IMG/VR virus record: IMGVR_UViG_3300007351_000003
Span: 4,022-68,021 of that record
Length of the DNA: 64,000 nucleotides
Reading direction: 5' to 3' (one strand)
Origin: a virus
A model generated the notes under the pieces. It had not been told where the DNA came from. It did no database searches and saw nothing but the letters and a program-made list of their open reading frames with translations. Both the position numbers and the translations under genes were made by a program. This document shows, one piece after another, positions 46,853 to 63,712 of the stretch (its first letter is position 1; each line of letters opens with the position of its first letter).

Positions 46853-47269
46853 TTATTTTTCTTTTGCCATCTGCATGAGTCGCGCAGCTACAACGACCTC
46901 ATCAACTTGGTATCGTTTCGCAAAAAATGACACAACATCCGGTCGATCCTTGTATTTTTCCCAGTCGGGAAGAAACAGGCTATCCGGCATCAGTAAGTGC
47001 AGCGCAAATTCATTCGCTTCTTTCTCGTCTCGATCTTCTAGTATCGTGGTCATATTTACCCTTGTTATCGTGTCTTGCGCTCGCTTATTCCATAGCCCAA
47101 TCGCGCCTCTGCGTGATTTCTTCGGATAAGTACGAACTAGGCATTTTAGGCATTCGATCTGCCACCATTTATGATTGACCATCGTGCTTTCATAGTTATC
47201 AACCCGCGCTTTACCGCCGCAGAATGGACACGATAACAAAACGGTCGAATCAGATTTCGCTTTGCTCAA
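46853..47269 (-). CDS. Lar-family zinc finger fused to an ImmA/IrrE-like C-terminal fragment
   Basis: CPFCGG...CLKC...AIGLWNKR, then EKEANEFALHLLMP. Confidence 0.7.
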   Translation of the reverse strand: MSKAKSDSTVLLSCPFCGGKARVDNYESTMVNHKWWQIECLKCLVRTYPKKSRRGAIGLWNKRAQDTITRVNMTTILEDRDEKEANEFALHLLMPDSLFLPDWEKYKDRPDVVSFFAKRYQVDEVVVAARLMQMAKEK

Positions 47270-47290
47270 CTGTTCACCTCCACGTTGGTG
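47231..47290. repeat. attC-like site
   Basis: CGATAAC...GGT[C]GAA/TTCACC...GTTGGTG, 60 bp. Confidence 0.8.
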
Positions 47291-47310
47291 CGGCGCTTCG
47301 CGCCGGAAAC

Positions 47311-47456
47311 CTTTTACGTCTGGGCGGGCTGGTAGGGACTTTCGGTTCTGCCACCATCACCCGACGATCGGGAGTCCTCCCGGCGAAGGGATTCTCATCC
47401 ACGGTACGGTATCGTTTTAGCGACAGCCGCCGCCAGTTCCCGCCCAGACGTAAAAG
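47311..47456 (-). ncRNA. 146-nt structured RNA candidate, copy 1 (strand assumed from operon direction)
   Basis: 18-bp closing stem and internal hairpins; 139/146 identical to 63489-63634. Confidence 0.65.
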
Positions 47457-47539
47457 CTTTTTATATTAAGCGCCGCACCAATGGGGCCGTTAAGTCGTGA
47501 CCGGCAAGCATTGGTTGATGCGTCGCACACTACGCGCCG

Positions 47540-47604
47540 CACCAACCAAGCCGTTCAAGACCGACCGCCCCTAACGGGGCGGCGACTTAACGGCCCCATT
47601 AAAT
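47540..47604. repeat. attC-like site (ATT variant)
   Basis: GCACCAAC...GTT[C]AAG/CTTAAC...ATTAAAT. Confidence 0.8.
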
Positions 47605-48045
47605 TTCTTCATGCCTCACGAAGACGGCGGTTGATAGTTCCAACCTCCGCAAAACTGAGACAAGCATCACTACTTCGGCGCTCTTGTTCGCAGCGGTATA
47701 CGTTGCCTCTTTTGCCGTTCGCACTTGTTTATCGTATAACTCAAGCAAGCCCCACGAGTCAGGCAATTCATCGGGCTTGACGAGTTTCGCGGGAACTAGA
47801 AAATAACGGTGATCCCCCATACCGCGCTCTTGTTCCCGGCGAAATATTTTATTCTTATCCGAGAGAAAATCTGCTCTCGATGCCTTGCACTCCACAAGGA
47901 TGCTAGCTCCACCAGAAGCATAGAAGCCTATCGCGTCTGGAGTTTCGGTGTTGTGTGTAGTGGCAAGTTCGGCCAAAATGATTGTGCAACGCCGATTATT
48001 TGCAAGCCATGCCTGAGCTTTTTTGACCAACTCTTTATGAGTCAA
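47599..48045 (-). CDS. PD-(D/E)XK nuclease-like (MmcB-related) cassette gene
   Basis: ETPDAIGF...LVECKASRADF. Confidence 0.7.
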   Translation of the reverse strand: MTHKELVKKAQAWLANNRRCTIILAELATTHNTETPDAIGFYASGGASILVECKASRADFLSDKNKIFRREQERGMGDHRYFLVPAKLVKPDELPDSWGLLELYDKQVRTAKEATYTAANKSAEVVMLVSVLRRLELSTAVFVRHEEI

Positions 48046-48058
48046 ACCGACCTCTGAA

Positions 48059-48115
48059 ATTTAACCAGTCAGTCCAGCCGTCCAAAAAGGACGGCAGCTG
48101 ACTTCTGCGTTATGG
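48059..48115. repeat. attC-like site
   Basis: ATTTAAC...AGT[C]CAG/CTGACT...GTTATGG, 57 bp. Confidence 0.8.
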
Positions 48116-48322
48116 TTCCAACCTCTTCATGAATTCTGCATTGCCATCCTCATGGCACCTGCTGCAGATATATCTTTTTGTCTTGATCGTCTTGTATGCC
48201 CTCGGTGCCTTATCTCGTGGCGGGTATGTGGTGCGGTTATCTGTATTGAATGCCTCTATGCCGAGGAATATCAATCCAAGAGTGAGAGCGATGCTGACTA
48301 TTGTGAGTCCGGGATTGGCCAT
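48110..48322 (-). CDS. Small membrane-anchored protein
   Basis: N-terminal TM, CSRCH; stop lies in the attC TAAC. Confidence 0.55.
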   Translation of the reverse strand: MANPGLTIVSIALTLGLIFLGIEAFNTDNRTTYPPRDKAPRAYKTIKTKRYICSRCHEDGNAEFMKRLEP

Positions 48323-48325
48323 GTT

Positions 48326-48475
48326 CTAATCTCCACTGTCGTCGGTCTGGTTTATGTCTTTCGGAGTAACCGCCATTTGTATCCTGTGCAATGCGCTGTA
48401 TACCGCTTCCCGGTTCTTCGGGTCGTTGTAGTTCTCAATTGCAAAATCAATATCTTTCTTTATCGTTTCGATCAT
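48326..48475 (-). CDS. Small hypothetical protein (49 aa, not in ORF track)
   Basis: Hand translation MIETIKKDIDFAIENY... Confidence 0.45.
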   Translation of the reverse strand: MIETIKKDIDFAIENYNDPKNREAVYSALHRIQMAVTPKDINQTDDSGD

Positions 48476-48614
48476 TCGTCACCACCTTGGTTAAGTTTGC
48501 AGGGCGACCCCGGACCAGGAGCCGCCCTGCATATGTAAAGGAGGTCCACTCCCCATGAGTGGCAAAAGAAACCCTGCCAGTAAGGAGAACCAGAAACCCG
48601 GCAGGGCAAATCAT

Positions 48615-48833
48615 TTATTCGTCTCCGTCTTGAGTGGGGTAAAGTATGTCATACGGTTTAAATGTTGCCTCGTGGATCGCCCTCGCTACTTCAACTCGCA
48701 TACGCTCGTAGGCCCTGATACGAATTTCTTTCGGGAGGCTGTCGAATTGTTTTTTTACGTCCGGGTGGACACGAAAGGAAACTGGGGGGCCTGTTTTTTC
48801 ATACTGCTGCAGATCGTCGCAATCTTTAGCCAT
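48615..48833 (-). CDS. Small regulator in cII position (ribbon-helix-helix-like)
   Basis: PVSFRVHPDVKKQF; AAAGGA SD; follows cro. Confidence 0.55.
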   Translation of the reverse strand: MAKDCDDLQQYEKTGPPVSFRVHPDVKKQFDSLPKEIRIRAYERMRVEVARAIHEATFKPYDILYPTQDGDE

Positions 48834-48900
48834 ATGTGTCATTCCTTTCGTAAATAGTGAACCAATGTAGACAGTGACAAAGAAAAAAATATATGTATAC

Positions 48901-49122
48901 TCAGGACGCTTTCCCCATGCGCTTGCCGAGTGACGGATTTTCAGCGAGGTGATATTTTCGAAAACCTTTTCGCTTGCTGAGAAAATAAATCGGTTTTTTA
49001 CCGGCGAAGATGGCAAGGTCGATCGCAAGGGGGATGATGGTAGTTTTTTTATCCCCCCGCAGGAGTGGGGTTAGGAAGCTCGGCTCGACGCCGTGCTTAT
49101 TGGCAATCTCAATCTTTTTCAT
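48901..49122 (-). CDS. cro: Cro-like HTH protein
   Basis: EIANKHGVEPSFLTPLLRG; divergent from repressor. Confidence 0.75.
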   Translation of the reverse strand: MKKIEIANKHGVEPSFLTPLLRGDKKTTIIPLAIDLAIFAGKKPIYFLSKRKGFRKYHLAENPSLGKRMGKAS

Positions 49123-49130
49123 TAGGCTTA

Positions 49131-49209
49131 ATTGTACTTTAGTACAAGTTAAAAGTCAACATAAAATTGTACTATAGTTTATTGACGTAGCTTTGAGGAT
49201 GCATATAAT
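49131..49209. promoter_or_regulatory. OR region: PR (minus), PRM (plus) and two operators
   Basis: PR TTGACT-N17-TACAAT (49159 to 49131); PRM TTGACG-N16-TATAAT (49182-49209); operators 49132-49147 and 49167-49182. Confidence 0.85.
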
Positions 49210-49215
49210 GAATGG

Positions 49216-49506
49216 ATGGAGAACTCCATGAAGGTTTTAGGGCGGCATATAAGAGCTTTGCGTAAATCCAGAGGATTAAAGGCAAAAGACATTGCAGAAC
49301 GTGCCAATTTGACACCTACTTATATAAGCAGGGTAGAAAACGGGAGAGTTGATGGCGTTTCGGTCGAGGTAATCATGAGGATCGCCCAAGCCATGTCTGT
49401 ACCCACGGCAGCTTTGTTTAAAGACGATGAGATCGTGGAAGAATTAATAAAACATGCGGAACTAATGAAGAAATTTTTTAAGGAAGAAGGCAAAAAAGAC
49501 AAATAA
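49216..49506 (+). CDS. XRE-family HTH repressor (cI position, no peptidase domain)
   Basis: IRALRKSRGL..KDIAERANLTPTYISRVENG. Confidence 0.85.
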   Translation: MENSMKVLGRHIRALRKSRGLKAKDIAERANLTPTYISRVENGRVDGVSVEVIMRIAQAMSVPTAALFKDDEIVEELIKHAELMKKFFKEEGKKDK

Positions 49507-49542
49507 TACCCTGAAAATACCCTGAAAGTATTAGATATGAGG

Positions 49543-49571
49543 TTGACAAATAATCCTTTCTTATGTTTAAT
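49543..49571 (+). promoter_or_regulatory. Sigma70-type promoter for a small lysogeny-region gene
   Basis: TTGACA-N17-TTTAAT with extended TG. Confidence 0.55.
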
Positions 49572-49600
49572 TGGCTTATTAAATCAAGGAGGATTAAGGA

Positions 49601-49777
49601 ATGAAAAAAGAAGAACCCTGCAACAATCTGAGGAACAACCTGTGCAAGCGATGCAGATCCAGCCGTATTGTTGTGGTGCCACGGGCCGCATTTGTGAAAT
49701 ATCTGAAACAAGGAAACGCCCTGCTATCGAAGTCGTTTTGCCCTCCCAACTCCATCCATAAACTACCGAAACAATAA
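49601..49777 (+). CDS. Small Cys-containing protein (58 aa, not in ORF track)
   Basis: MKKEEPCNNLRNNLCKRC...; AAGGAGG SD; own promoter and terminator. Confidence 0.5.
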   Translation: MKKEEPCNNLRNNLCKRCRSSRIVVVPRAAFVKYLKQGNALLSKSFCPPNSIHKLPKQ

Positions 49778-49798
49778 AAAATAATAATACTTTGACTT

Positions 49799-49826
49799 AA
49801 AAAAGGCACCCTTGGGTGCCTTTTTT
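49799..49826. terminator. Bidirectional Rho-independent terminator
   Basis: A6-GGCACC-CTTG-GGTGCC-T6. Confidence 0.85.
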
Positions 49827-49842
49827 ATTGTCCGAAAAATAA

Positions 49843-49895
49843 TTGTACTATAGATATATTTTTTACTTGCATTGTTAGTTGTACTATGGTACAAT
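49843..49895 (+). promoter_or_regulatory. OL region: PL and two operators
   Basis: TTGCAT-N17-TACAAT (49867-49895); operators 49843-49858 and 49879-49894. Confidence 0.8.
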
Positions 49896-50060
49896 TCAAC
49901 CATGCTTAATTTGCTGCGTTAGTTTCACCCTCTGCCCCTTCTTACGAAGCAGGGCGTGAGGGTTCTAATAGCAACATGGTACATCCACCAGCATCGGGAT
50001 GGTTTCAAAGGCGGATTACAATCGGCCAAAGGTAATTGAGCTTCTTACCGCACCGCAGTA

Positions 50061-50262
50061 CCAGTAGGTAGTTCTTGGAGGGGGTTGAGCTACGGAGGGC
50101 CAAACCGGTAGCGCAAATCGAAAACGACACAGTGCGTACCCTGATCCCGGGGTCTGAAGCGCACGAGAGATACAGGAAGGGGCCGCTTGCTGGTCGTCGA
50201 AGCAACGCGTTGGTCTGCAGGCAACAGACACTCTTCCTGCCTCGCCAAGAACTACTTACTGG
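50061..50262 (+). ncRNA. Structured RNA candidate in the PL leader
   Basis: 17/18-bp closing stem 50061-50078/50245-50262 enclosing several hairpins. Confidence 0.45.
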
Positions 50263-50326
50263 ACACCACGAGCGCAGCACCAGCGATTTTAAGAATCGCG
50301 CCATTCTCCAAGAAAGGAGGGGCACT

Positions 50327-50560
50327 GTGAGCGCATTAGCGGAAACACTCAGCAAAGCCAGAACGCGCCGTAAGTTGTCGATGAACGACGTATCCAGGCA
50401 GTCCAGCATCGCCAAAGATCACCGCGGCAGGATCACTCAGGGCTACATCTCCCGCCTTGAGTCTGGCAAAGAAACAAACCCATCATTCCTGAAACTGCAG
50501 ACGCTGTGCAATATTTACCGGATCAATCCGGGGACACTCTTTAAGCAAACGGTGAGATAG
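50327..50560 (+). CDS. XRE-family HTH protein
   Basis: GTG start with AAGGAGG SD; ITQGYISRLESG..NPSF. Confidence 0.8.
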   Translation: MSALAETLSKARTRRKLSMNDVSRQSSIAKDHRGRITQGYISRLESGKETNPSFLKLQTLCNIYRINPGTLFKQTVR

Positions 50561-50634
50561 ACTTGTACGGCGCAAGAGCGGACTGTAAATCCGATCCGAA
50601 AGGCCAGGAGGTTCGATTCCTTCTCTCACCACCA
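50551..50634 (+). tRNA. tRNA-Tyr(GTA) with encoded CCA and atypical D-arm
   Basis: GGTGAGA/TCTCACC acceptor stem, A73-CCA, CT-GTA-AA loop, GGTTCGATTCC T-arm, long variable arm. Confidence 0.8.
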
Positions 50635-50651
50635 TCACGCTCGATCATGAT

Positions 50652-50667
50652 AGTTCCACGTGAAACA
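50652..50667. promoter_or_regulatory. parS: parS-like ParB loading site
   Basis: AGTTCCACGTGAAACA, 15/16 to TGTTCCACGTGAAACA. Confidence 0.7.
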
Positions 50668-50767
50668 TCGGTGCAAAATCCTCAACCGGAGGTGATTGCC
50701 CTATGAAGTAGGAAAAACACTTATTTTATCACTGTTCCTTATTGAGAGTACCAAAAGCAAAGTTTTA

Positions 50768-50779
50768 CGTTCTTTCACA
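50768..50779 (+). promoter_or_regulatory. boxA-like element
   Basis: CGTTCTTTCACA in the PL leader. Confidence 0.4.
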
Positions 50780-51017
50780 TCAAGATCCACATCCAGAATT
50801 ACATCAAGTTAAAAAGGGCGGGCAGAGCCTCTTGCACCCGTGAGATAGGGTTCAGCTCCAATAAAACTTCGCGGCTTTCAGATACTCTGAGCCGCACACT
50901 AATCGAGCGATGGGGAGAAATAAAAAATTACCCGACGCAAAGCTCTGCCGCCCTCACCTACGAGCATCCTATATCGGAATCATATTTTTATTTTATTCAA
51001 CGTCGAAAGGTGAACCC

Positions 51018-51209
51018 ATGTCAGAATCAAAATATGAGTCATTTTCGTCAATCAGCGAACTGAAGCCGGGAATGATCGTTCGCGGAAAGTCAACCGGACA
51101 AACGTTTATGGTCCTCGTAAGCTTTGGGGACCGCGTGACTGCCGTAAGCACGGCAGACATAACGAATCCCGATGAGTGGGAAGTTTTAAAAAAAATAACG
51201 CCAAGCTGA
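51018..51209 (+). CDS. Small hypothetical protein
   Basis: 63 aa from MSESKY, AAAGGTG SD; LKPGMIVR SH3-like. Confidence 0.55.
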   Translation: MSESKYESFSSISELKPGMIVRGKSTGQTFMVLVSFGDRVTAVSTADITNPDEWEVLKKITPS

Positions 51210-51434
51210 CCCGCAGCCGAGGAGGAGAAGCATGAGCATGTGTCGAATACCAGACTGTGGATATTATTTCAAGGGATGCTGTAAAAAGAAAGATGGAACT
51301 ATTTGCACTGCTCAGGCTTCGCCGTCTCGAACGAGTGGTTCTCCGACCGCGTCGCGGTCGGACTCGGTCGAGGCGGCTGCCTCTCAACTCGCCGCCATTC
51401 CAGCGGTCACAATCGAAAGTTGAGGAGCGAGTCT

Positions 51435-51599
51435 ATGCAAAAACTTACAGTAAAGGAACTCAGAGACGCACTGCAAAAGGCAGACGATAATGCAGATATC
51501 ATTATTCATACTGCCAAAGAGATTTCGACAGCGAGGCAAGTAGTGATAGGCAGAGAACCGTTCATCATGATAATCGCAAGCGACGAAACTTGTCCTTAG
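51435..51599 (+). CDS. Small hypothetical protein
   Basis: MQKLTVKELRDAL, GAGGAG SD. Confidence 0.55.
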   Translation: MQKLTVKELRDALQKADDNADIIIHTAKEISTARQVVIGREPFIMIIASDETCP

Positions 51600-51668
51600 A
51601 AGCGTGACCGCTGGAATGCTTGCGTAACTCGCAGGCGTAGCCAGTCGAAGTTGACGCGATTGTTACGA
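51594..51668. repeat. Degenerate attC-like site
   Basis: Imperfect hairpin ending TTGACGCGATT-GTT; left AAC lost. Confidence 0.45.
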
Positions 51669-51702
51669 TTGTTATGATTGCGTCTAAAGGTGGTAATTGA
51701 AA

Positions 51703-51840
51703 ATGGACGAAAAAGTTTACGATCTTTCATTAGAAGATATCAGACCATTGATTGACCTACCTGCCGAATATGAATTGGTTCGCGCAGATAGCAACGGAAA
51801 CGGAACAGGCGTGATTGTCAAACTGGTCAAGCGATCATAA
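51703..51840 (+). CDS. 45-aa cassette-like ORF (not in ORF track)
   Basis: MDEKVYDLSLEDIRPL...; flanks GTTATGATT / GATCATAAT pair. Confidence 0.5.
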   Translation: MDEKVYDLSLEDIRPLIDLPAEYELVRADSNGNGTGVIVKLVKRS

Positions 51841-51894
51841 TGCGGCGGTAAGCCTCGGCACGCGAAGCGACGGGTTCGACCCGTTTGGTTAAGA
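51835..51894. repeat. Degenerate attC-like site
   Basis: TCATAAT-GCGGCGGTAAGCCTCGGC...GTTAAGA; left arm resembles 62609. Confidence 0.55.
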
Positions 51895-51915
51895 CTTTTT
51901 GGAGGGCTGATATAT

Positions 51916-52224
51916 ATGCCAAGAAAATTATCTGAACCCGTTATGCGATACGCGAATGCCATGCAATTGAAATTGAACAAAAACGCGCACAAAGGCGGCT
52001 GGATTCGCTATGACAATCGGGGCCGACGAATATGGGCTCCTGAAGACGTGCGTTTTTTGCTCAACAAACTTAAAGAAGAGCACGACGAACTGATTGCAGA
52101 GGTGGAAAAGTATTTGTCTAATCCATGCATGTATCAAGGGAACAATCTGCTGAAAGAAGCTGCGGATAATGGAAATATTTCGATGATGCTTGCGGATGTA
52201 TGTAGGCAATTGAAAAAAGTATAA
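51916..52224 (+). CDS. MazG-like nucleotide pyrophosphatase-fold protein
   Basis: KLKEEHDEL...EAADNGNISMML; stop in TAAC. Confidence 0.55.
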   Translation: MPRKLSEPVMRYANAMQLKLNKNAHKGGWIRYDNRGRRIWAPEDVRFLLNKLKEEHDELIAEVEKYLSNPCMYQGNNLLKEAADNGNISMMLADVCRQLKKV

Positions 52225-52276
52225 CGCGCCGGATGAACGGCGCAGCGGAAGCGGAATGTCGGTCCGCTGGTTGAAA
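52219..52276. repeat. Degenerate attC-like site
   Basis: GTATAAC...CTG-GTTGAAA, 58 bp. Confidence 0.5.
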
Positions 52277-52299
52277 ACGGCGATATCAGGAGGCCCACC

Positions 52300-52548
52300 A
52301 TGAAGAAACAGAAATTGCTCTGCGGAAAGTGCAAAACGGAACTGGACGAAAGCATGCTCTGCTCGGTAACTGATACTGTCGGCGAGGTTTACCGGGAAAG
52401 AAAGGCTTTGTGCTGCAATAATCCAGATTGCTCGGCACCGATCCATGTAATTTCTATGACCGAGGGGCCGATTGAGAAACCCAAAACGTTTTTTGGCCGC
52501 TCCTGGCTCCTCGCTCCTATTGGCCGGCTGCTCATGGGGAGGACATAG
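52300..52548 (+). CDS. Zinc-finger hypothetical protein
   Basis: CGKC...CCNNPDC; AGGAGG SD. Confidence 0.55.
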   Translation: MKKQKLLCGKCKTELDESMLCSVTDTVGEVYRERKALCCNNPDCSAPIHVISMTEGPIEKPKTFFGRSWLLAPIGRLLMGRT

Positions 52549-52660
52549 TCATGGAGATAACCTATTGCTCCTGGATTCGCGTGATCGAACAGGCACAGCG
52601 GGAAGCCCCTGTCTGGCTGGAAGAAGCATTCGCTCGGATCAAGCAGAAAGAAGTTGCGTA

Positions 52661-56633: not shown

Positions 56634-57206
56634 ATGAATGAAATTTGGAAAGACATACCTGAGTTTGAAGGTGTTTATCAAATCTCAAATCATGGTAGAT
56701 TGAAAAAACTAAAATGCGAAAGAAGACCGCATTCCTATCCTCGGATTGTATCGGTTAAAAACGGGAATGGGTGGTATCTCACGATTATTTTGCAGTTCGA
56801 AGGGAAAAAGAAAACTGCGAGAATACACCGTCTTGTGGCAGAGGCATTCATTCCTAATCCAGAAAATAAGCTAGAGGTAAACCACAAAGATACGAATAAA
56901 CAAAACAACCACTGGAGCAATTTAGAGTGGGTCAGCCGAAAAGAAAATCATGCTCATGCGGTCAAGAATACAGATATCGTAAAGGGCATGAATCATTACA
57001 ACAAGTTTGTCAGGCCAAATATCATAGTGCAAGTTTCTCCTGAAGGAGATGTAATTAAAGAATTCCCAAACGCATGCGAAGCTGCGCGAACTACAGGCGT
57101 ATGTAACAGAAATATTCTCCAAGTTGCTCATAAGACGCAATATAAGCCTGGGAAAATCAGGAAGCAAGCGGGTGGTTTTATCTGGAGGTTTAAGGATGCA
57201 GTTTGA
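56634..57206 (+). CDS. NUMOD4-HNH homing endonuclease
   Basis: EIWKDIPEFEGVYQISNHGR; IHRLVAEAFI; VNHKDTNKQNN..SNLEW. Confidence 0.9.
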   Translation: MNEIWKDIPEFEGVYQISNHGRLKKLKCERRPHSYPRIVSVKNGNGWYLTIILQFEGKKKTARIHRLVAEAFIPNPENKLEVNHKDTNKQNNHWSNLEWVSRKENHAHAVKNTDIVKGMNHYNKFVRPNIIVQVSPEGDVIKEFPNACEAARTTGVCNRNILQVAHKTQYKPGKIRKQAGGFIWRFKDAV

Positions 57207-57901
57207 GTCATTGGCGTCATCCAGTAAAGGAAATGCTTATATCGTTACAGCGGAAGGGGCAGCGCCGTTGCTCATCGAAGCAGGTATGCCAATCCGCACT
57301 TTGAGAGAACGCCTAGGTTTTGGCGTTACGGGTCTCGCGGGGTGCCTTGTATCCCACGAGCATCTTTGACCACGCCAAAGGCGTCAAGGACTTGCTTAAA
57401 GCAGGCGTAGACTGCTGGATGAGCGCAGGGACCGCCGAGGCACTTGGAGTATTCGGCCATCACCGGCATTGCCTGCTTTTGCCTGACGATACTGCGACAC
57501 TAGGAAATGGATGGACGGTAAAGCCTTTTGATCTACAACACGACGCCTCAGAGCCGCTCGGCTTCCTCATAGGCCACAAAGATGAAAGGCTTCTGTTCGT
57601 TCCAGATACCGCATACGTCGAGAACCGCTTCGCAGGTGTCACCCTGGCCGCGATCGAATGTAACCACGTGGAGTCCATCCTGTCGCAGAATATCGTAAGC
57701 GGCCGGGTGGATCCTTCTCTCGGGAAGCGGATACGCAGGAATCACATGAGCCTGGAAACCGCAATCGCCATGCTCAAAGCCAATGATCTGAGCAAGTGCC
57801 GGAAGATTTTTTTGCTTCATCTCTCAGACGCTAACTCGGATGAGCAGCGCATGAAACTTGAGATCCAGCAGGCCACAGGAATACCGACTGAAATATGCTG
57901 A
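57196..57901 (+). CDS. MBL-fold exonuclease requiring a +1 frameshift at 57364-57370 (or a pseudogene)
   Basis: LASSSKGN...SHEHL in one frame, DHAKG...HDA...DT...IECNH...LLHLS in the +1 frame; junction CTT TGA C. Confidence 0.85.
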
Positions 57902-58146
57902 AACTTGAATTCAACAAACCATCCATTAATTGTATGTATTTCCGGGAGAAACTTTCCGGGGTTGGGGAGAATGTCTGCATCCATAAATTCGATACTTGTA
58001 CACCAGTAGACTGTGAAGATAAGGCGCCATATCCTGCAGCGGAAGATATCCGACAAGAAAATTGGAAGCGCAACTACGAAGAATGCCCAAGCATGGACTG
58101 TGAGCTATGCGAGGATAGAGAAATCTGTGAAGGAAGTGAAGTGTAG
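57895..58146 (+). CDS. Cys-rich hypothetical protein
   Basis: 83 aa overlapping the upstream stop. Confidence 0.45.
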   Translation: MLKLEFNKPSINCMYFREKLSGVGENVCIHKFDTCTPVDCEDKAPYPAAEDIRQENWKRNYEECPSMDCELCEDREICEGSEV

Positions 58147-58223
58147 AGCAGCCCGCACCACGCGGGCAGAGAACGCCAAGCTGACCCGCAGCCGAGGAGA
58201 AGCTATCGGAAAGGAGAAATATC

Positions 58224-58625
58224 ATGGGCATGCCTGACAGAACGGTTGATCCGAACGGAATTGAAGAAGACGACGCATATATGACCATCTTCGAAGAGGC
58301 ACGCAAGGAGAAAATGGCCGATATGGACGTATGGGTTGCCTGGAAGATGGGTCTTGCAGCATATCAGCAGGCGCGGAAACTCGACGTGAAGTTTCCACAC
58401 GACACACCGGAACCGATTGATACCCCGGACCACATGACCATCGCGGATATGAAAGTTGAAGTTGCCGACTACGAACCGCATTATAACATGATTGATGCCG
58501 AAACCATCCGCGAATCATCATGTCCGGCTTGCAAGGGCCCGCTTATGTACCGTGGATTCAAGCATGGTGACTCATACCGTGCGTTTGCCGTATGCAAGAA
58601 ATGCAATCGAGCGGACGAATTTTAA
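58224..58625 (+). CDS. Hypothetical protein with C-terminal zinc ribbon
   Basis: CPACKG...CKKC; AAAGGAG SD after an attC half-site. Confidence 0.6.
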   Translation: MGMPDRTVDPNGIEEDDAYMTIFEEARKEKMADMDVWVAWKMGLAAYQQARKLDVKFPHDTPEPIDTPDHMTIADMKVEVADYEPHYNMIDAETIRESSCPACKGPLMYRGFKHGDSYRAFAVCKKCNRADEF

Positions 58626-58771
58626 AGCGTCCAACGCGGTCGATAGGATAGATGGCGCTGAAATCGTACTGGAAAATAAAATAGCCCAGGCAATCCCCGG
58701 CCCGGACGGGAAGTCAAGATGGACTGCCAACCCTTATGTATGGAGCATTTACTTTAAGAGAATACCTAACC

Positions 58772-59113
58772 ATGACACATTTTGAAGACGGACCCGCAAA
58801 AGGGGAAACCCTGATGCTGAAACGTTCTCCCATCTTTCTCCGTGTGGTAGAAGTTAACGGACAATGGGACGCTCTTGATCAGTTGGATGACGAACCAGCC
58901 CCCCATGAGAAGATATACGCCTATGAACGCATAGGCGAGCCCGGCATGGTGCATATCAATGCAGGGCGTAAGGGCAACAGTGGGTGGTATCCGATGGCAG
59001 CTTACCGGTTCATAACTGATCAACCAACCGATTCTGCAATGCTCGACAGCGAAGCCTGGCGGCAGTGGTGCCGGAATAGAGTAAAACCGAAATCTACAGA
59101 GGTCTTAAAATAA
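58772..59113 (+). CDS. Conserved phage hypothetical protein
   Basis: FEDGPAKG...WDALDQLDDEP motif. Confidence 0.6.
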   Translation: MTHFEDGPAKGETLMLKRSPIFLRVVEVNGQWDALDQLDDEPAPHEKIYAYERIGEPGMVHINAGRKGNSGWYPMAAYRFITDQPTDSAMLDSEAWRQWCRNRVKPKSTEVLK

Positions 59114-59574
59114 TGGTCATCCTTGCCTTTCTGCAAAACATGTGGGTTCGGGAGCCCGAGAAGGTCCGGGCTTGGCTGGACAAGAATCCGCATCTCTGGA
59201 ACCGTGCCGTAACCGGCTTTTTGTTCTCGGGCTGTCTGACCGGCCGGAGGATTAAAGCCTGCTTCGGTGACCTGGTCGAGAAGATGACATTCGAGGAATG
59301 TACAAGGGAGATCGCCGGCGATTCCCGAACCATCTGCCCACCGAACACCGCACACATCGAGGCTTGTATCGAGAAGTACAAACCGACGGTTGTGGTCACG
59401 TTCGGGAGGATCGCAGCTGAGGCGGTACGACCGATCTGGCATGCCTGGTCCACATTGACGCCTGAATATTTTATCGCATTGCCTCACCCAGCAGCCAGGC
59501 AGGTCGACACGATCAGCAAACTGAAGTCTGCAGCCAATAAGATCAGGAGGCTCTGTGGAAACTACATCAGTTAG
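59113..59574 (+). CDS. Uracil-DNA glycosylase-like superfamily protein
   Basis: PTVVVTFGRIA and IALPHPAAR motifs. Confidence 0.6.
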   Translation: MVILAFLQNMWVREPEKVRAWLDKNPHLWNRAVTGFLFSGCLTGRRIKACFGDLVEKMTFEECTREIAGDSRTICPPNTAHIEACIEKYKPTVVVTFGRIAAEAVRPIWHAWSTLTPEYFIALPHPAARQVDTISKLKSAANKIRRLCGNYIS

Positions 59575-59734
59575 CGGCGAAATCAAAAAAGAAACCGACC
59601 TCGCCATACTGTTCTTTGACGGGGAAAAGGAAGTCTGGATACCGAAATCACAGATCGAATCCCGGGTGAATTACAGCGATAGCGTGGAGATTGAGATTCC
59701 GGCCTGGTTAGCAGAAGAAAAGGAGTTGGTATGA
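59555..59734 (+). CDS. Small conserved phage protein (59 aa, not in ORF track)
   Basis: GTG with AGGAGG SD; WIPKSQI...IPAWLAEEKEL. Confidence 0.6.
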   Translation: METTSVSGEIKKETDLAILFFDGEKEVWIPKSQIESRVNYSDSVEIEIPAWLAEEKELV

Positions 59735-60129
59735 GCGACGTTATTAGAGACATTACAGATTACTCCATGAGCGAAGACTATGAACTGCTTTGGGACTTGG
59801 CACAAAAGCAGTCAGTCGTGTGCGAGGTGGACTATGATTCCAGAAACAATGATCCATCCAAACCTATCCGGGACATAGCAGCCACTCGATCTCACAAGCA
59901 TCGTGATGAAATAGTGGTCGAGGTTGAAGTCAGAGGGTACGGGTATATCTATGCCACTGATAAAGAAGATTTCCTGATGCAGTGCCGGAGATCGCGGCTG
60001 AAGTTCATATTGCCCCACATCAGAAAAAAAGAGAGATGCATACACTACTCGTGCAGACTGTGCTTATTGGGCAGTGGTATATGCTCAGGATGCGAGGGCT
60101 GTAAAGAATATGAACCTGACGGGTTGTAA
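59731..60129 (+). CDS. Hypothetical protein
   Basis: 132 aa, ATGA-coupled. Confidence 0.55.
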   Translation: MSDVIRDITDYSMSEDYELLWDLAQKQSVVCEVDYDSRNNDPSKPIRDIAATRSHKHRDEIVVEVEVRGYGYIYATDKEDFLMQCRRSRLKFILPHIRKKERCIHYSCRLCLLGSGICSGCEGCKEYEPDGL

Positions 60130-60132
60130 TTA

Positions 60133-60402
60133 ATGGCCGCCTTCTCCAAAGATGGCTGGGTTAACCGCTTCTGGCACTGTGACGGTTGCGGGAAAGAAGG
60201 ATCATGGGAAGAAGGCTGGTCATGGTACGGGTCAATCTTACATCTCGACACATGCCCGAACGATGTCCCGGTTGCCTGTTCAGATGCTTGCGCGAAGATC
60301 GTTCAGGAGAGGATCGACAGCGGCCAGTACGTTTTACCGAAACCGAAGCTGAGGAATAAGAAATACTACTCGGCAGTGGTGACGAAGAGAAAGGGGTACT
60401 GA
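60133..60402 (+). CDS. Zinc-binding hypothetical protein
   Basis: CDGCG...W...ACSDAC. Confidence 0.55.
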   Translation: MAAFSKDGWVNRFWHCDGCGKEGSWEEGWSWYGSILHLDTCPNDVPVACSDACAKIVQERIDSGQYVLPKPKLRNKKYYSAVVTKRKGY

Positions 60403-60591
60403 ATGAGCGAAGAACTTAATCCAATCCCCTGCCCGTCATGCGGCGAAGATCTGGTAAAAAAAGATGACCATCACGGAGACTGGTGGGCTCACAAGAATGA
60501 TCTGTCAAGCTGCATTTTTTCATTCATTCAATTGATGGATCAATCTGATGTTAAACGGTGGAATATTCGACCGACTATCCCCGGGCTCTAA
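60403..60591 (+). CDS. Lar-like zinc ribbon protein
   Basis: PCPSCG...KRWNIR. Confidence 0.55.
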   Translation: MSEELNPIPCPSCGEDLVKKDDHHGDWWAHKNDLSSCIFSFIQLMDQSDVKRWNIRPTIPGL

Positions 60592-60821
60592 GTAACCCAC
60601 ATCCCAGAACACGATGGGGCCACAGGATTCACCCGGGGGCTCACGCTGGCCGAAGGTATGGAGTTGCTGCCGAAGTTGGTTGAATACATCCTTACCGCCG
60701 AGGGGATGCAGTGTATAAGCGGACTGTCTGTCAATCTAGTGCTTACCCTGCCCTGCGGGGATCGCGTAGAGGTCCAGAAAGATGATATTGCAGAAAGTAC
60801 CAAGAGATAAGAGGAGTCATT

Positions 60822-61073
60822 ATGAGTAACGAGCAGCCGCAAAAAGTAGTGAATACTCTCCCGGCCGAGGGCCTTTGTCGACTCAGGCAGATCATAGGAT
60901 ACAGGGATAAAGATTCTGGTGAATGGGTGCCAGGCTTCCTTGCTATCAAAAAAAGTGCATGGTATCGGGGGATCATAGAAGGCAAATACCCGAAGCCTGC
61001 AAAGAAGTTTGGCACTCGCTGCACTTTATGGGATGTTGATGATATCAGGAAGCTGAAAGAAAAGGCATCGTAA
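60822..61073 (+). CDS. alpA: AlpA-family excisionase/regulator
   Basis: LCRLRQII...IKKSAWYRGI.EGKYPKP.KFG.RCTLW. Confidence 0.85.
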   Translation: MSNEQPQKVVNTLPAEGLCRLRQIIGYRDKDSGEWVPGFLAIKKSAWYRGIIEGKYPKPAKKFGTRCTLWDVDDIRKLKEKAS

Positions 61074-61126
61074 TGCGATACTGACCCCTGCTACTTTAGC
61101 GTGGGTGTCGAGCACTCTGGTTAGTT
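61068..61126. repeat. attC-like site (AAT variant)
   Basis: CT-GAC-CCC pairs with GGG-[T]-GTC-[G]-AG; ends GTTAGTT. Confidence 0.75.
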
Positions 61127-61148
61127 TTCCAGAGTGCGGAAAGGCAGC

Positions 61149-61391
61149 ATGATAAAGATTACAGACAGACGGTCAATTTTAAAACAGGTCATCAGCGGGA
61201 TTTGCTGGTCTCCGGTGGCTCTCATCGGCTTATTTATTGCTGCGCTCGTGGGCCTGATGGCATACGGTATTACAATTACCATTCTTGGCGGCGGGCTGCT
61301 TAAAGTCATTATTGGATTAGCGAAGTCTGCCGGTATTATGGCCGTGGTTTTCGGATACATCATTGCATTTATATGGTCGAACCAAAACTAA
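61149..61391 (+). CDS. Cassette gene: two-TM membrane protein
   Basis: Hydrophobic 80 aa; stop in TAAC. Confidence 0.65.
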   Translation: MIKITDRRSILKQVISGICWSPVALIGLFIAALVGLMAYGITITILGGGLLKVIIGLAKSAGIMAVVFGYIIAFIWSNQN

Positions 61392-61489
61392 CGCGAGCAT
61401 GAGCCGCGTACACATTGGAGGGCAAATGAAGCATTTTATTAAAACCACAACGGAGCAGATCGGGCGACGGCTCGATGCTCTGGTTAGAA
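61386..61489. repeat. Long attC-like site (104 bp)
   Basis: GAGCAT-GAGCCG pairs with CGGCTC-[G]-ATGCTC; ends GTTAGAA. Confidence 0.85.
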
Positions 61490-61614
61490 TTTGTCATGTT
61501 CATTGGCATTCTAAGTTTGCGAGATCGTGGATATGTCACTCATACCCATGCTATTATCCTGTTTCTGATTATCGCTGCCGATGTGGGCACATTAAGACAT
61601 ATCGCACAAATTGA
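61426..61614 (+). CDS. Cassette ORF initiating inside the attC loop (62 aa, Cys/His-rich)
   Basis: GGAGGG SD and ATG within the attC variable loop. Confidence 0.45.
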   Translation: MKHFIKTTTEQIGRRLDALVRICHVHWHSKFARSWICHSYPCYYPVSDYRCRCGHIKTYRTN

Positions 61615-61677
61615 TTTTAACGCGGCGCTGACCTGCCGCAGCGAAGCGGAGGCCAGTGTCGAGCGTCCTGGTTAGAA
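61615..61677. repeat. attC-like site
   Basis: GCT-GAC-CTG pairs with CAG-[T]-GTC-[G]-AGC. Confidence 0.85.
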
Positions 61678-61680
61678 TTT

Positions 61681-62304
61681 ATGCCAATGATCGCAGCACT
61701 ATATGTTATGAAAAACGGCGTCTATTATGGGTTGCCCGACGTGGACCCATGGGACGCTCACCGCGACGCCCGGAAGTACGCAGGGCCTTTCCCGGTTGTC
61801 GCACATCCGCCCTGTGAACGATGGGGCCGCTATTGGAGCGGAGGGCCGATGTTGGCAAGGACGCCGAAGGCCAAAAAAAAGGGCGACGATCAGGGATGTT
61901 TTGAGGCGGCGATAAATGCAGTACGCCGATTCGGCGGAGTCATTGAACATCCCGAGGGCAGCCACGCATGGACGGCATTCGGTTTGAACAAGCCACCGCG
62001 AACCGGGGGATGGGTGACGGCAGACTTTGAGGGCGGCTGGACATGTTGTGTCGAACAGGGACATTACGGGCACAGAGCTCGCAAGGCAACCTGGTTATAT
62101 GCGCACAGCGTAGAATTGCCGGATTTGAAGTGGGGTTCGTGCGGTAAAAAGGAACGGCTGGAAGACGGATACCATTCAACGGAAGAGCGGCGGCGGGCAG
62201 TTCGTACCGGGATTTGCCAGAGGTTATCGAAAAACCAGCGCACCGCGACGCCGCAGGAGTTCCGGGATTTGTTGATTGGAATTGCAAAGACGGTACGGAA
62301 TTAA
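61681..62304 (+). CDS. Cassette gene: minimal C5-methyltransferase-like protein
   Basis: AHPPC (motif IV-like), VIEHP (VI-like), QGHYGHRARKATW (VIII-like); no FxGxG. Confidence 0.65.
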   Translation: MPMIAALYVMKNGVYYGLPDVDPWDAHRDARKYAGPFPVVAHPPCERWGRYWSGGPMLARTPKAKKKGDDQGCFEAAINAVRRFGGVIEHPEGSHAWTAFGLNKPPRTGGWVTADFEGGWTCCVEQGHYGHRARKATWLYAHSVELPDLKWGSCGKKERLEDGYHSTEERRRAVRTGICQRLSKNQRTATPQEFRDLLIGIAKTVRN

Positions 62305-62306
62305 AA

Positions 62307-62365
62307 TTCCAACGCTTGCGTCAACCGCGAGCGAAGCGTAGACGGTTTGGACGCAATTGTTATGC
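62307..62365. repeat. attC-like site (59 bp)
   Basis: TTGCGT-C-AACCG pairs with CGGTT-[T]-G-[G]-ACGCAA. Confidence 0.85.
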
Positions 62366-62387
62366 GCCATCACGGAAAAGGAGAACA

Positions 62388-62606
62388 GTGAAAACTATTA
62401 TCACGAAACAACAGTTCACAGAGTTAGTGGGGATTCTGGCACTCGCAGATCATGAAATGAAAATCCTCAACACCCTAAACGATGCGGCACACGCTATCAC
62501 AGGTGAAAAAGATGATTGGGGACATACGGCAGATGCGATCTGGGACGACAACCTACGAGACGCGAAAAAATTGTTGAGGAAGCTCAAAATCATCGTTAAA
62601 AAGTAA
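62388..62606 (+). CDS. Cassette gene: 72-aa hypothetical protein
   Basis: GTG with AAGGAG SD. Confidence 0.6.
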   Translation: MKTIITKQQFTELVGILALADHEMKILNTLNDAAHAITGEKDDWGHTADAIWDDNLRDAKKLLRKLKIIVKK

Positions 62607-62608
62607 GC

Positions 62609-62672
62609 GCATAATGCGGCAGTTAAGCCTCGGCCCCGTCAGGGGCCGAAGGTCTTGAACTCCTGGTTCTCT
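62609..62672. repeat. attC-like site (AAT variant)
   Basis: GTT-AAG-CC pairs with GG-[T]-CTT-[G]-AAC. Confidence 0.85.
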
Positions 62673-62776
62673 CAGCGCTGATTTATAGCGCGTTTTGAGA
62701 AGGAGTTCAGGCTTAACTGCCGCATTCCCTCAGCGCGGCTCATGTAAAAGGCTTTAAGCTGAAAGGAGATTACACA

Positions 62777-62923
62777 ATGGCAACGAAAATCGAAAAGGTG
62801 CTTCAAGATACAGAAAAATGGCTTGAAAAAGAAAAAACGTGGGAAGACGATTTAGACGGATTAGATGCCATAGATATAGCGAAGGCTGTAATTCATCGGA
62901 TCAGAGAGCGGCTTTCAGCTTAA
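62777..62923 (+). CDS. Cassette gene: 48-aa protein (not in ORF track)
   Basis: MATKIEKVLQDTEKW...; AAAGGAG SD. Confidence 0.55.
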   Translation: MATKIEKVLQDTEKWLEKEKTWEDDLDGLDAIDIAKAVIHRIRERLSA

Positions 62924-62945
62924 AGCCTACCTCTAATCAGCGCTG

Positions 62946-63002
62946 AGGGAACCCGACAAAATGAGGGGTGCGGAGCATCCCGCTCGATTTTAATGGTTAG
63001 CC
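62946..63002. repeat. attC-like site
   Basis: AAAAT-GAG-GGG pairs with CCC-[G]-CTC-[G]-ATTTT. Confidence 0.8.
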
Positions 63003-63035
63003 GCTTTCATCGGTTTAGCCAGAAAGGATACTATT

Positions 63036-63350
63036 ATGAGTTGGGGAGAAAGAAGCTGCAAGCGGCCTTGTCGTTGTCCTCAGAAATGTAAAATGGAAAC
63101 GTGTAATGTTGATTGTTCCTCGTATGAATGGGATGGTGTGACAAAACCAGATTCGGCGTCAAAAATAATGAAATATTGGCCTTGTGAATGTCCTTTTATC
63201 GTGGGGCAGAATAGGTGTCAAGTTCATGATGCTGAAGCTACATGGATAATGTTCGATACGCCATTACGGGGTTATGACAACCAGAGAGTACAGGAGGCCC
63301 TTAAATCACTGGAAGAGCTGTGCAGGTCGGGCAAGAAGTTAAGCGGCTAA
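63036..63350 (+). CDS. Cassette gene: Cys-rich hypothetical protein
   Basis: 104 aa; stop in TAAC. Confidence 0.6.
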   Translation: MSWGERSCKRPCRCPQKCKMETCNVDCSSYEWDGVTKPDSASKIMKYWPCECPFIVGQNRCQVHDAEATWIMFDTPLRGYDNQRVQEALKSLEELCRSGKKLSG

Positions 63351-63405
63351 CCCCGGGGCTAAGCCATCGCCCGTAGGGCGATTGGTTTTGAACTCCTGGT
63401 TGATA
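63345..63405. repeat. attC-like site
   Basis: GGCTAAC...ATCGCCC-GTA-GGGCGAT...TT[G]AACTCCTG-GTT. Confidence 0.8.
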
Positions 63406-63488
63406 CGGCGCGTAGCTTGCGCCGTGCCAACCGATTAGAGACTTCAGCGGCTCAAGGCCCCCATTGGTGCGGCGCTTAATATAAAAAG

Positions 63489-63634
63489 CTTTTACGTCTG
63501 GTCGGGAACTGGCGGCGGCTGTCGCTAAAACGATACCGTACCGTGAATGCGAATCCCTTCGCCGGGAGGACTTCCGATCGTCGGGTGATGGTGACAGAAC
63601 CGAAAGTCCCTACCAGCCAGACCAGACGTAAAAG
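63489..63634 (+). ncRNA. 146-nt structured RNA candidate, copy 2
   Basis: Inverted copy of 47311-47456 with a compensatory G-C to U-A change in the closing stem. Confidence 0.65.
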
Positions 63635-63654
63635 GTTTCCGGCGCGAAGCGCCG

Positions 63655-63712
63655 GGAGAACGTCAAAATGACGCGCAAGCGTAGCGCGTCGCTATCGATT
63701 TTATGGTTAGGC
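63655..63712. repeat. attC-like site
   Basis: AAAAT-GA pairs with TC-[G]-ATTTT; ends GTTAGGC. Confidence 0.8.

Follow-up and report, generated by a model that had tools for sequence, protein, structure and literature searches.

The 64,000-nucleotide stretch analysed here (the window) belongs to an 83-kb temperate phage record that carries 16 full attC-type sites and three partial ones. We consider it probable that these are genuine attC sites, that they form CALINs of reversed gene polarity in the divergent early operons of the phage, and that they draw on a phage cassette pool recombined in trans by IntI. On this interpretation the phage is a lambdoid one, whose divergently transcribed early operons would contain two integrase-less arrays, with two isolated sites in addition. 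When the whole record was scanned, attC-type sites occurred at 31-33 kb and at 47-64 kb of the window, and the remainder of the record was free of them.

Sites were scored with a covariance model derived from the phage sites (R1) and with one derived from 21 bacterial sites only (R3). The alignment for R3 was made under the phage-derived model, and thus R3 is not fully independent. The full sites are listed below.

61613..61679, + strand: attC site K; R1 54.1 bits, R3 21.1 bits on the + strand; 3'-arm bulges G, T and AGGC; its bottom strand is the + strand
62607..62674, + strand: attC site M; R1 49.6 bits; L boxes almost identical to the bottom-strand L boxes of attC_aadA1 (R100)
62305..62367, + strand: attC site L; R1 47.9 bits, R3 26.8 bits on the + strand
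63343..63407, + strand: attC site N; R1 45.7 bits, R3 22.5 bits
63653..63714, + strand: attC site O; R1 42.9 bits, R3 12.2 bits
61066..61128, + strand: attC site e; R1 43.6 bits; bulges G, T and T
61384..61491, + strand: attC site J, from the hairpin aligner; R3 17.3 bits over the whole site; long loop with a Shine-Dalgarno sequence and ATG
62944..63004, + strand: attC site N0; 3'-arm bulges G and CG (hairpin aligner); weak by covariance model (R1 only 9.6 bits)
51609..51670, + strand: attC site a; R1 44.9 bits; bulges G, A and T
51833..51896, + strand: attC site b; R1 45.2 bits
52217..52278, + strand: attC site c, a weaker site; R1 29 bits
47538..47606, - strand: attC site x2 of the left arm; R1 53.2 bits, R3 28.9 bits on the - strand; extrahelical G, T and T at 3 + 3 bp
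47229..47292, - strand: attC site x1; R1 45.8 bits; Shine-Dalgarno sequence in the 5' arm and the TTG of a Lar-like gene in the loop
48057..48117, - strand: attC site x3; R1 29.3 bits, R3 34.8 bits on the - strand
32641..32698, - strand: isolated attC site outside both arms; R1 21.9 bits, R3 26.1 bits
31337..31396, - strand: isolated attC-like site, a relative of x3; R1 17.1 bits, R3 15.2 bits

The partial sites are the following.

51197..51227, + strand: attC remnant consisting of the 5' arm only, with a Shine-Dalgarno sequence and ATG after it; shares 97% identity with the copy at 58172
58172..58202, + strand: second copy of the 5'-arm-only remnant, preceding a different ORF
63953..63985, + strand: incomplete ninth right-arm site (5' arm); compared by eye, the right flank of site O pairs with its left flank

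Seven sites had been quoted in an earlier note on this DNA, and all of them are present with the positions and letters given there. Sites a, b and c, the two isolated sites and the three remnants are additional to that list.

Fourteen sites were folded on the gene-sense strand with a purpose-made unbranched-hairpin aligner. All 14 had single-base bulges in the 3' arm, first a G and then a T or A 3 bp further in, and often a third bulge another 2-3 bp beyond. The model-fitted alignment, also of 14 sites, had G in the first bulge column in 13 of them, and in the second column T in eight, A in three and G in one. Extrahelical bases confined to a single arm, with G first and T or A further in, are expected of attC sites, and so is a structure kept while the sequence varies. 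In the L-box helix 89% of cells were paired, with changes on both sides at 8 of the 9 pairs, and when the partner was slid by 1-3 columns the pairing fell to only 24-51%. These compensatory changes satisfy the second expectation. The R boxes of an attC form an imperfect inverted repeat within 5'-RYYYAAC ... GTTRRRY-3'; the left box contained AAC or AAT and the right box GTT in all 14 aligned sites. The spacers between R and L boxes were unpaired and 2-6 nt long, as required. With 6-nt flanks the sites measured 61-108 nt, against a total of about 57-141 bp for attC sites, and their terminal loops were variable. According to Nivina et al. 2016 (PMC5027507), extrahelical bases face the 5'-AAC triplet on the bottom strand and usually comprise a G at 16, an optional base at 20 and a T at 23/24. 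The three-base pattern at 3 + 3 bp of attCoxa2 and VCR2 (PMC5027507) is present in several phage sites; the second base is 3 bp from the G, and the third, which gives the 6-bp spacing that is said to be a requirement of IntI1, is missing from some. In adjacent sites the right flank of one is complementary to the left flank of the next over 9-19 nt, the longest match (19 nt, 95%, 18 pairs) being that between M on its right side and N0 on its left.

The coding strand of three genes beside these sites was set by PHROG and Pfam matches.

61681..62304, + strand: cassette gene of 207 aa that fills the K-L interval; phrog_12600, E 3.5e-66
47599..48045, - strand: cassette gene of 148 aa between x3 and x2; phrog_631, E 1.4e-43
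46853..47269, - strand: Lar-like restriction-alleviation or IrrE-like gene; PF14354 (Lar_restr_allev) 4e-10, PF06114 1.2e-08, phrog_599 1.8e-12

Furthermore, ORFs of the + strand span the inter-site intervals and have Shine-Dalgarno sequences. Several of the small cassette ORFs have no homologues, and some intervals also contain antisense ORFs of similar length.

In all sites the extrahelical G and the T or A 3 bp inward sit in the 3' arm of the gene-sense strand. The class 1 controls (aadA1, aac(6')-IIa, IMP-1, dfrA1 and a gcu) are the mirror image, with the bulges in the 5' arm of the gene-sense strand. The earlier note had started from the premise that the extrahelical G belongs in the 3' arm of the bottom strand, which agrees with both PMC5027507 and these controls. 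All 14 sites with E < 0.1 under R1 were on the gene-sense strand, and none of its 23 matches up to E 10 was on the antisense strand of a site; two matches on the odd strand were marginal (E 7-10) and lay in the structural region, at no site. The same model matched attC_aadA1 (36 bits), the attC of aac(6')-IIa, the pIMP26 attC located 3' of a group II intron and a gcu attC, and all four matches were opposite to the strand of the annotated cassette genes. Model R2 gave 16 matches opposite to the flanking ORFs in 10 chromosomal IntI loci of Desulfobacterota; as a gauge of chance matches, 2.3 Mb around related integrases yielded at most one marginal match (E 0.67) to it, and the 842 kb surrounding homologues of one cassette gene yielded none. 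Conversely, R3 matched the window and a second phage, G406, on the gene-sense strand only. R3 produced full-length matches with E < 1 at ten window sites, including five with E <= 1.2e-4, which satisfies the covariance-model criterion for attC; an eleventh match covered only part of site c. Both reciprocal models thus put the bottom strand on the gene-sense strand. This upholds the claim that every ORF is inverted relative to a normal cassette, and it is the opposite of the normal orientation that had been named as its refutation. Judging from these sequences, the strand that the integrase should cut is the coding (mRNA-like) strand, opposite to the situation in bacterial integrons.

The Lar-like ORF indicates on which side of its gene the attC lies. 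Its sole possible start is the TTG at 47269, in the loop of x1 and after the GGAGGTG of the x1 5' arm, and the ORF reads on from there across the x1 GTT box. A crossover at GTT is excluded because it would cut this gene, and since the gene starts inside attC x1, each attC precedes its gene. The canonical arrangement of a promoterless top-strand ORF followed by its attC is therefore not met. The 148-aa gene stops at a TAA whose last two letters are the AA of the x2 AAT triplet. In the 51197 and 58172 remnants identity begins exactly at the AAC triplet and runs rightwards, and the sequences to the left differ. On the coding strand a cassette would consist of the C of AAC, the attC body with extrahelical bases in the 3' arm, GTT, the gene and a final AA; the bottom strand, recognised by IntI and cut inside 5'-AAC, would be the mRNA-like strand; and some attCs would supply the following gene with its ribosome-binding site and start codon. 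A non-coding cargo occurs in both arms.

63448..63663, + strand: 216-nt non-coding cargo, right-arm copy; the two copies align as an inverted repeat, 93%
47282..47497, - strand: 216-nt non-coding cargo, left-arm copy of the same inverted repeat, 93%

The two copies stop matching 6-7 nt short of the AAC in the downstream site, not exactly at it. Homologues of the 207-aa gene in 80 other viral contigs had no attC nearby in any of them.

No IntI was found in the phage record or in G406 (TIGR02249 had no match in the whole phage record). A P4-type integrase (Arm-DNA-bind_3, Phage_int_M, Phage_integrase), located just past the window end, is the sole tyrosine recombinase. A complete integron, with intI, attI and Pc beside the array, is thus not present, although attI and Pc were not searched for. 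CALINs are defined as at least two same-strand attC sites less than 4 kb apart without an IntI nearby (PMC4889954), and the clusters at 47.2-48.1 kb (- strand), 51.6-52.3 kb (+ strand) and 61.1-63.7 kb (+ strand) meet this definition. The nearest relatives of the P4-type integrase are from the phylum Desulfobacterota, and we infer this host phylum only from those 55-60% identical integrases. IntI above the family cut-off was present in 136 of 401 sampled Desulfobacterota genomes. Presumably the arrays rely on a host integrase; its supply by the host and its action on the sites are inferred, and no recombination event was observed. Recombination would then take place in trans, and phages in IntI-bearing hosts might gain, lose and reorder accessory genes. 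There would be no integron Pc promoter, and the genes would be read through from phage early promoters, both arrays being served by the following pair.

49131..49209, no strand assigned: divergent promoter-like pair between the arms, matching the consensus at 11/12 and 10/12, with HTH regulators nearby

G406 resembles the window phage by its recombination module only, the SbcC-like protein being 56% identical. It has 11 sites, nine on the + strand and two on the - strand, with the same two-arm polarity, and each is co-oriented with its genes (NinB-like, phrog_8937, methyltransferase and radical SAM). These four genes were set on the sense strand by PHROG and Pfam. The methyltransferase frame continues through one attC, and thus a start codon in the loop is ambiguous there. 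Such arrays were present at only one of the roughly 150 loci that have related SbcC-like genes. The same polarity in two arms of a phage with no cassette in common with the window phage supports the earlier view that the orientation is not due to chance capture.

The sites might instead be real attCs that no longer recombine, their polarity being an accident of one founding event that both phages inherited and that has no function. The absence of IntI from both phages, the decayed 5'-arm-only sites (51197, 58172 and ~63953) and the location of both arrays at the same place, downstream of the common SbcC/RecT/exonuclease module, are all consistent with such relics. However, the two arrays contain different cassettes, compensatory changes have kept the pairing and the flanks are complementary over up to 19 nt, which argue for turnover after the phages diverged. 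We therefore regard relics as unlikely. Less plausible still is that the hairpins act mainly in RNA, as stabilisers, processing sites or attenuators of early transcripts, and owe their orientation to RNA folding. The sense strand was more stable in 13 of 16 sites with RNA parameters, and some sites hold the ribosome-binding site of the next gene, but the mean difference was small (2.8 kcal/mol) and with DNA parameters both strands were near-equal. No consistent terminator-type T runs follow the sites, and an RNA function leaves unexplained the flank complementarity across genes, the AAC/GTT boxes, the fixed extrahelical G and the matches to the bacterial-attC model; it could be a secondary role. 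Finally, the near-palindromic nature of attC sites, together with the small orphan ORFs and antisense ORFs mentioned above, could suggest ordinary cassettes with the gene strand or the site strand mis-assigned, but we give this hardly any credence, since three cassette genes here and four in G406 are fixed on the sense strand, a long antisense ORF that was tested had no PHROG or Pfam match, bulge side, spacer lengths and the two reciprocal models are concordant, and the annotated class 1 controls give the opposite answer.

Among the forms of selection suggested earlier, one on the replication strand fits poorly with the position of the λ-O-type origin. A λ-O-type replication gene with tandem repeats lies at 35.2-36.3 kb, and therefore, with a rightward fork, the lagging-strand template would carry the bottom strand of the right arm, whereas at 47-48 kb the bottom strand would be on the leading-strand template. 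Array orientation matched transcription in every case. In sedentary chromosomal integrons, a reverse orientation is possible for cassettes that bring a promoter of their own, toxin-antitoxin cassettes being an example. For reversed CALINs with IntI in trans, the most economical explanation would be a single polarity fixed across the phage cassette pool, because recombination of the bottom strand preserves polarity; selection for transcription would then align each array with its operon. Fixed pool polarity and the need for transcription are enough to give the agreement between arms, and thus this agreement is no proof of an adaptive reversal.

The reason for the reversal is a matter of inference. 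It is possible, though we hold this only tentatively, that phages maintain a separate cassette pool as a mirror image of the bacterial one, with the attC lying before the gene and able to serve as its translation-start region, with cleavage falling on the non-template strand of early operons under strong transcription, and with the reversal being adaptive. If so, it would insulate the phage pool from the bacterial one and vice versa: a phage cassette that entered a bacterial attI would run antisense to Pc, and capture by the phage would leave a bacterial cassette, for example a defence gene, antisense to the early transcript. Site folding, and hence gene swapping, could also be coupled to early transcription. 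Since the cassettes contain ordinary phage genes, such phages could be a birthplace of new cassettes.

Phage and canonical cassettes (class 1, such as In2 of R100, and chromosomal) share the R boxes, the unpaired central spacer, the L boxes, the extrahelical G and T and the variable loop, as well as a stop codon often in the xxTAAC box and complementary flanks spanning each gene, and their sites match each other's covariance models. They differ in that the phage gene is on the opposite strand relative to its attC, IntI is absent, expression would come from phage early promoters, and the cargo consists of phage-type genes (PHROG families) and a non-coding element. CALINs in phage genomes have been published, and IntI1 was shown in experiments to recombine attCs of virulent phages, with a preference for the bottom strand over the top (Qi, Rajabal, Ghaly, Tetu & Gillings 2023, PMC9892861). 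Those are likewise attC clusters in phages without IntI, but the CALINs illustrated in that study have two to a few attC sites, and its cassettes are described as having the typical structure of bacterial arrays (PMC9892861). Here most of the 16 full and three partial sites form two opposed arms, and every gene is on the bottom strand with the attC in front. No mention of reversed gene polarity was found in that study (PMC9892861), nor did we find any published description of it.

Bottom-strand orientation is also a known control point in sedentary integrons. In a Vibrio cholerae array inverted by experiment, cassette excision rose from below 7e-5 to 3e-2 once the lagging-strand template carried the bottom strand (Richard et al. 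2024, PMC13108822). There the whole array including its genes was inverted relative to replication (PMC13108822), whereas in the phage each gene is inverted relative to its own attC, and the orientation tracks transcription and not the replication origin.

The sites lie in a single virus record of 83,217 bases, of which the window covers bases 4022-68021. The phage is of the lambdoid, temperate type. Its genes switch from the minus to the plus strand at about 49 kb, where both skews also flip sign. No match to the integron-integrase family TIGR02249 was found in the entire record, and an Rfam scan of the window at the gathering threshold gave no matches.

Features of the phage (window coordinates; strand in brackets for the attC-type sites)
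33.8-36.3 kb, λ-O-like replication protein (with an HNH insert) and DnaB helicase
35.62-35.72 kb, tandem repeats
47229-47292 (−), attC-type site x1
47480-47497, 18-nt inverted copy of a 5′ arm, after x2
47538-47606 (−), attC-type site x2
48057-48117 (−), attC-type site x3
~49-50.5 kb, HTH regulators and divergent promoter-like sites
52.9-57.9 kb, SbcC-like ATPase, RecT, HNH endonuclease and exonuclease
61384-61491 (+), attC-type site J
61613-61679 (+), attC-type site K
62305-62367 (+), attC-type site L
62607-62674 (+), attC-type site M
62709-62726, 18-nt inverted copy of a 5′ arm, after M
Just past the window end, P4-type tyrosine integrase

The earlier note had claimed that these sites face backwards, with the mRNA strand being the attC bottom strand in both arms, and the strings it quoted were all found in the sequence. 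We took 14 sites bounded by AAC or AAT and GTT boxes and aligned their arms with our own simple aligner for unbranched hairpins. On the gene-sense strand, the single-base bulges of every site fell in the 3′ arm. The first, a G, lay 3-4 pairs in from the spacer, and the second, a T, A or G, followed after 3 bp; in many sites a third unpaired base or small loop came another 2-3 bp in. A covariance model (R1) was built from 11 sites carrying this hairpin structure. At E < 0.1 it detected 14 sites in the record, all on the gene-sense strand, and none of its 23 hits up to E 10 was on the antisense strand of any site. The first bulge was a G in 13 of the 14 sites in the fitted alignment, and the second was a T in eight, an A in three and a G in one. 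The L-box helix was 89% paired, both sides varying in 8 of 9 pairs, and sliding the partner by 1-3 columns left 24-51% paired. The background of model hits was essentially nil: the 2.3 Mb surrounding related integrases gave no more than one marginal hit, and 842 kb from other viral contigs gave none. When the sites were aligned with MAFFT, the left box and two of the sites fell out of register, which was remedied by refitting to the first model. A generic scan that folded all AAC...GTT pairs under constraint was too noisy and was dropped. A reading of the hairpins as intrinsic terminators was considered and set aside.

Sites M and x2 are each followed (62675-62735 and 47475-47540) by a short hairpin, behind which the 5′ arm of the same site recurs as a perfect 18-nt inverted copy; the resulting nested fold reaches −55 kcal/mol in the left arm. 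This structure looks like an internally deleted, inverted attC copy.

In the description by Nivina et al. (PMC5027507), the extrahelical G occupies position 16 and a T position 23/24, with an optional base at 20. Annotated class 1 integrons served as controls (R100, pNY8709-IMP, pIMP26 and two others). The attCs of aadA1, aac(6′)-IIa, IMP-1, dfrA1 and a gcu cassette, read on the resistance-gene strand, carried their bulges in the 5′ arm; these were C and A, or equivalents, the mirror image of the phage sites. On its plus strand, site M is nearly the same as the aadA1 site seen from the bottom strand, down to the lengths of the spacers. The phage-derived model recognized class 1 sites at 36, 26, 24 and 15 bits, in each case only on the strand opposite to the cassette gene. 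In the reciprocal test, a model built in bottom-strand orientation from 21 bacterial sites only (R3) matched ten window sites over their full length and ten sites in a second phage, all on the gene-sense strand. Because the alignment behind R3 was made with the phage-derived model, R3 is not fully independent, unlike the analysis of bulges in the control sites. A covariance model placing the sites in normal orientation would have refuted the claim, and R3 did not do so. The identification of the gene-sense strand with the attC bottom strand is thus upheld by the side of the bulges, the class 1 controls and both reciprocal model tests. In plasmid pZ0117KP0020-2 (locus L005, 6518-6615), the stretch between attI1 and dfrA1, which has no listed gene, contains an attC-like hit that may represent a cassette without an ORF.

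The phage integrase has its nearest relatives in assemblies of Geobacteraceae, Syntrophaceae, Smithella and Desulfuromonadaceae. IntI (TIGR02249) scored above the curated family cut-off in 136 of 401 sampled Desulfobacterota genomes, often with several copies per genome. Within ten of these IntI regions, 16 of 16 model hits were on the strand opposite to the flanking ORFs. Therefore, attC polarity is ordinary in this candidate host phylum. Five whole candidate host genomes yielded one weak hit, and no host was identified.

The coding strand of the cassette genes was supported by homology. The 207-aa ORF filling the K-L interval matched phrog_12600 (E 3.5e-66), the 148-aa ORF between x3 and x2 matched phrog_631 (E 1.4e-43), and the ORF after x1 matched Lar-like restriction-alleviation families and an IrrE-type domain. 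The long antisense ORF that we tested had no match. The remaining plus-strand ORFs fill their intervals and are preceded by Shine-Dalgarno sequences; a number of the small ORFs lack homologues.

Over 9-19 nt, well past the conserved triplets, each site's right flank is the complement of the following site's left flank. Since the flanks are complementary, each gene with its two flanks shows itself, on sequence evidence and without recombination having been observed, as a past recombination unit. Flank complementarity alone cannot separate the two polarities because both predict it. Besides the bulges, the feature that discriminates between them is the start of the Lar-like gene. The first codon of its frame is TTG 47269, which sits in the x1 loop, five bases past the GGAGGTG of the x1 5′ arm. 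The frame then crosses the GTT box and reaches the CPFC zinc ribbon, at which the Pfam match starts, and there is no later in-frame start upstream of the ribbon. A crossover in GTT would cut this gene, while a crossover inside AAC, as expected for the bottom strand, would keep the attC and the gene as one unit. Weaker support came from three other features. The long loop of site J holds a Shine-Dalgarno sequence and an ATG. The 5′-arm remnants at 51197 and 58172 are identical for about 30 nt rightward from AAC and diverge immediately leftward, and behind each is a ribosome-binding site and then a different ORF. Many ORFs stop at the TAA of the next site's xxTAAC box, where the cassette itself ends.

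Each arm carries one copy of a 216-nt non-coding element bounded by 22-nt terminal inverted repeats, at 47282-47497 (−) and 63448-63663 (+); the copies are 93% identical and have no Rfam match at the gathering threshold. As duplicated cargo it was tried as a test of which attC travels with which gene. The attC sites downstream of the copies are dissimilar and those upstream alike only at the family level, and these similarities were insufficient to settle the question.

Homologues of the 207-aa gene were found in 80 other viral contigs at 55-75% identity, and in none of the 80 was there an attC-like site within 6 kb. From this we infer that a normally free phage gene sits inside a cassette here.

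A profile of the SbcC-like protein retrieved 80 viral and 80 metagenome loci, and only one record among them carried arrays: the second phage (IMGVR_UViG_3300033407_000004, 76 kb), whose SbcC-like protein is 56% identical. It has nine plus-strand sites downstream of the shared recombination module and two minus-strand sites about 19 kb leftward of them. The adjoining genes share the strand of the sites (NinB-like, phrog_8937 and methyltransferase on the plus strand, a radical SAM protein on the minus strand), and the rule of flank complementarity also holds. Tabulating ORF against attC orientation, as the earlier note had suggested, thus gave the same polarity in this phage and ordinary polarity at the Desulfobacterota IntI loci. 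The two phages have the recombination module in common and share no cassettes. No tyrosine recombinase at all was found in the second record. One of its attCs has a Shine-Dalgarno sequence and ATG in the loop, but the methyltransferase frame reads on through and the site was not counted. Single-protein searches with the SbcC-like protein and a 636-aa virion-region protein found no close phage relatives. Loci around related P4-type integrases were unrelated elements without attC. Exact-pattern scans of viral contigs for two site families produced a single chance match, which fell within a long ORF, and metagenome relatives of the SbcC-like gene gave just two marginal hits, both on the gene strand.

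Site orientation tracks transcription without exception, at the 16 sites here and the 11 of the second phage. Our preferred and minimal explanation is a founding polarity combined with the need for transcription. Bottom-strand recombination would keep gene and attC polarity unchanged, and therefore a single founding polarity, given that need, would leave every array oriented with its operon. The reversal might also be useful, through insulation from the host cassette pool or because the bottom strand, being the non-template strand, would be exposed; both are ideas only. Under RNA parameters the sense strand folds slightly better at 13 of 16 sites (mean 2.8 kcal/mol), and under DNA parameters the two strands are nearly equal. 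A template-strand effect on excision has been described (PMC13108822). Replication-strand bias, which the earlier note had offered as a possible driver, was set aside, as it fits less well with the position of the λ-O-type gene and the repeats: from an origin in or near that gene, a fork moving rightward would have the bottom strand as lagging-strand template in the right arm and as leading-strand template at 47-48 kb.

Integrase-less attC clusters in phages have already been published and recombined experimentally by IntI1 (PMC9892861). A limited literature search found no published statement of phage arrays with the gene on the bottom strand. In integrons, the integrase recombines the attC bottom strand, and promoterless genes are thereby correctly oriented behind Pc. 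The phage arrays are a natural system with intact-looking attCs in which this rule would orient every gene wrongly, and the cassette genes are nonetheless arranged for expression from phage promoters. Three consequences can be tested. The first is the strand choice of IntI on sites with a reversed coding context, and the second is the transfer of cassettes between phage and host arrays, which should silence the cassette in the recipient. Bacterial integrons are now known to store anti-phage defence genes. Such silencing matters because host integrons hold anti-phage defence and the phage cassettes carry anti-restriction-type genes (Lar-like, methyltransferase). Third, phage genes that are cassette-free in 80 other phages and in cassettes here bear on the unsolved origin of cassettes.

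Outside the arrays, the exonuclease gene (57190-57892) has a +1 frame change at about 57363-57368, reflecting either programmed frameshifting or an error in assembly; tblastx shows the second-phage homologue running through this point in a single unbroken frame. An HNH_3/NUMOD4 homing-type endonuclease (56634-57206) separates RecT from the exonuclease and is missing at the matching place in the second phage. The λ-O-like initiator (35182-36327, −) contains an internal HNH endonuclease domain, and its 12-22-nt tandem repeats lie inside the gene (35621-35721). A C-5 cytosine DNA methylase of 996 aa (41272-44262, −) has a Hint_2 (intein-type) domain near its N-terminus. A tRNA-Tyr (GTA) gene is located at 50551-50634 (+), in the regulatory region separating the two arms.
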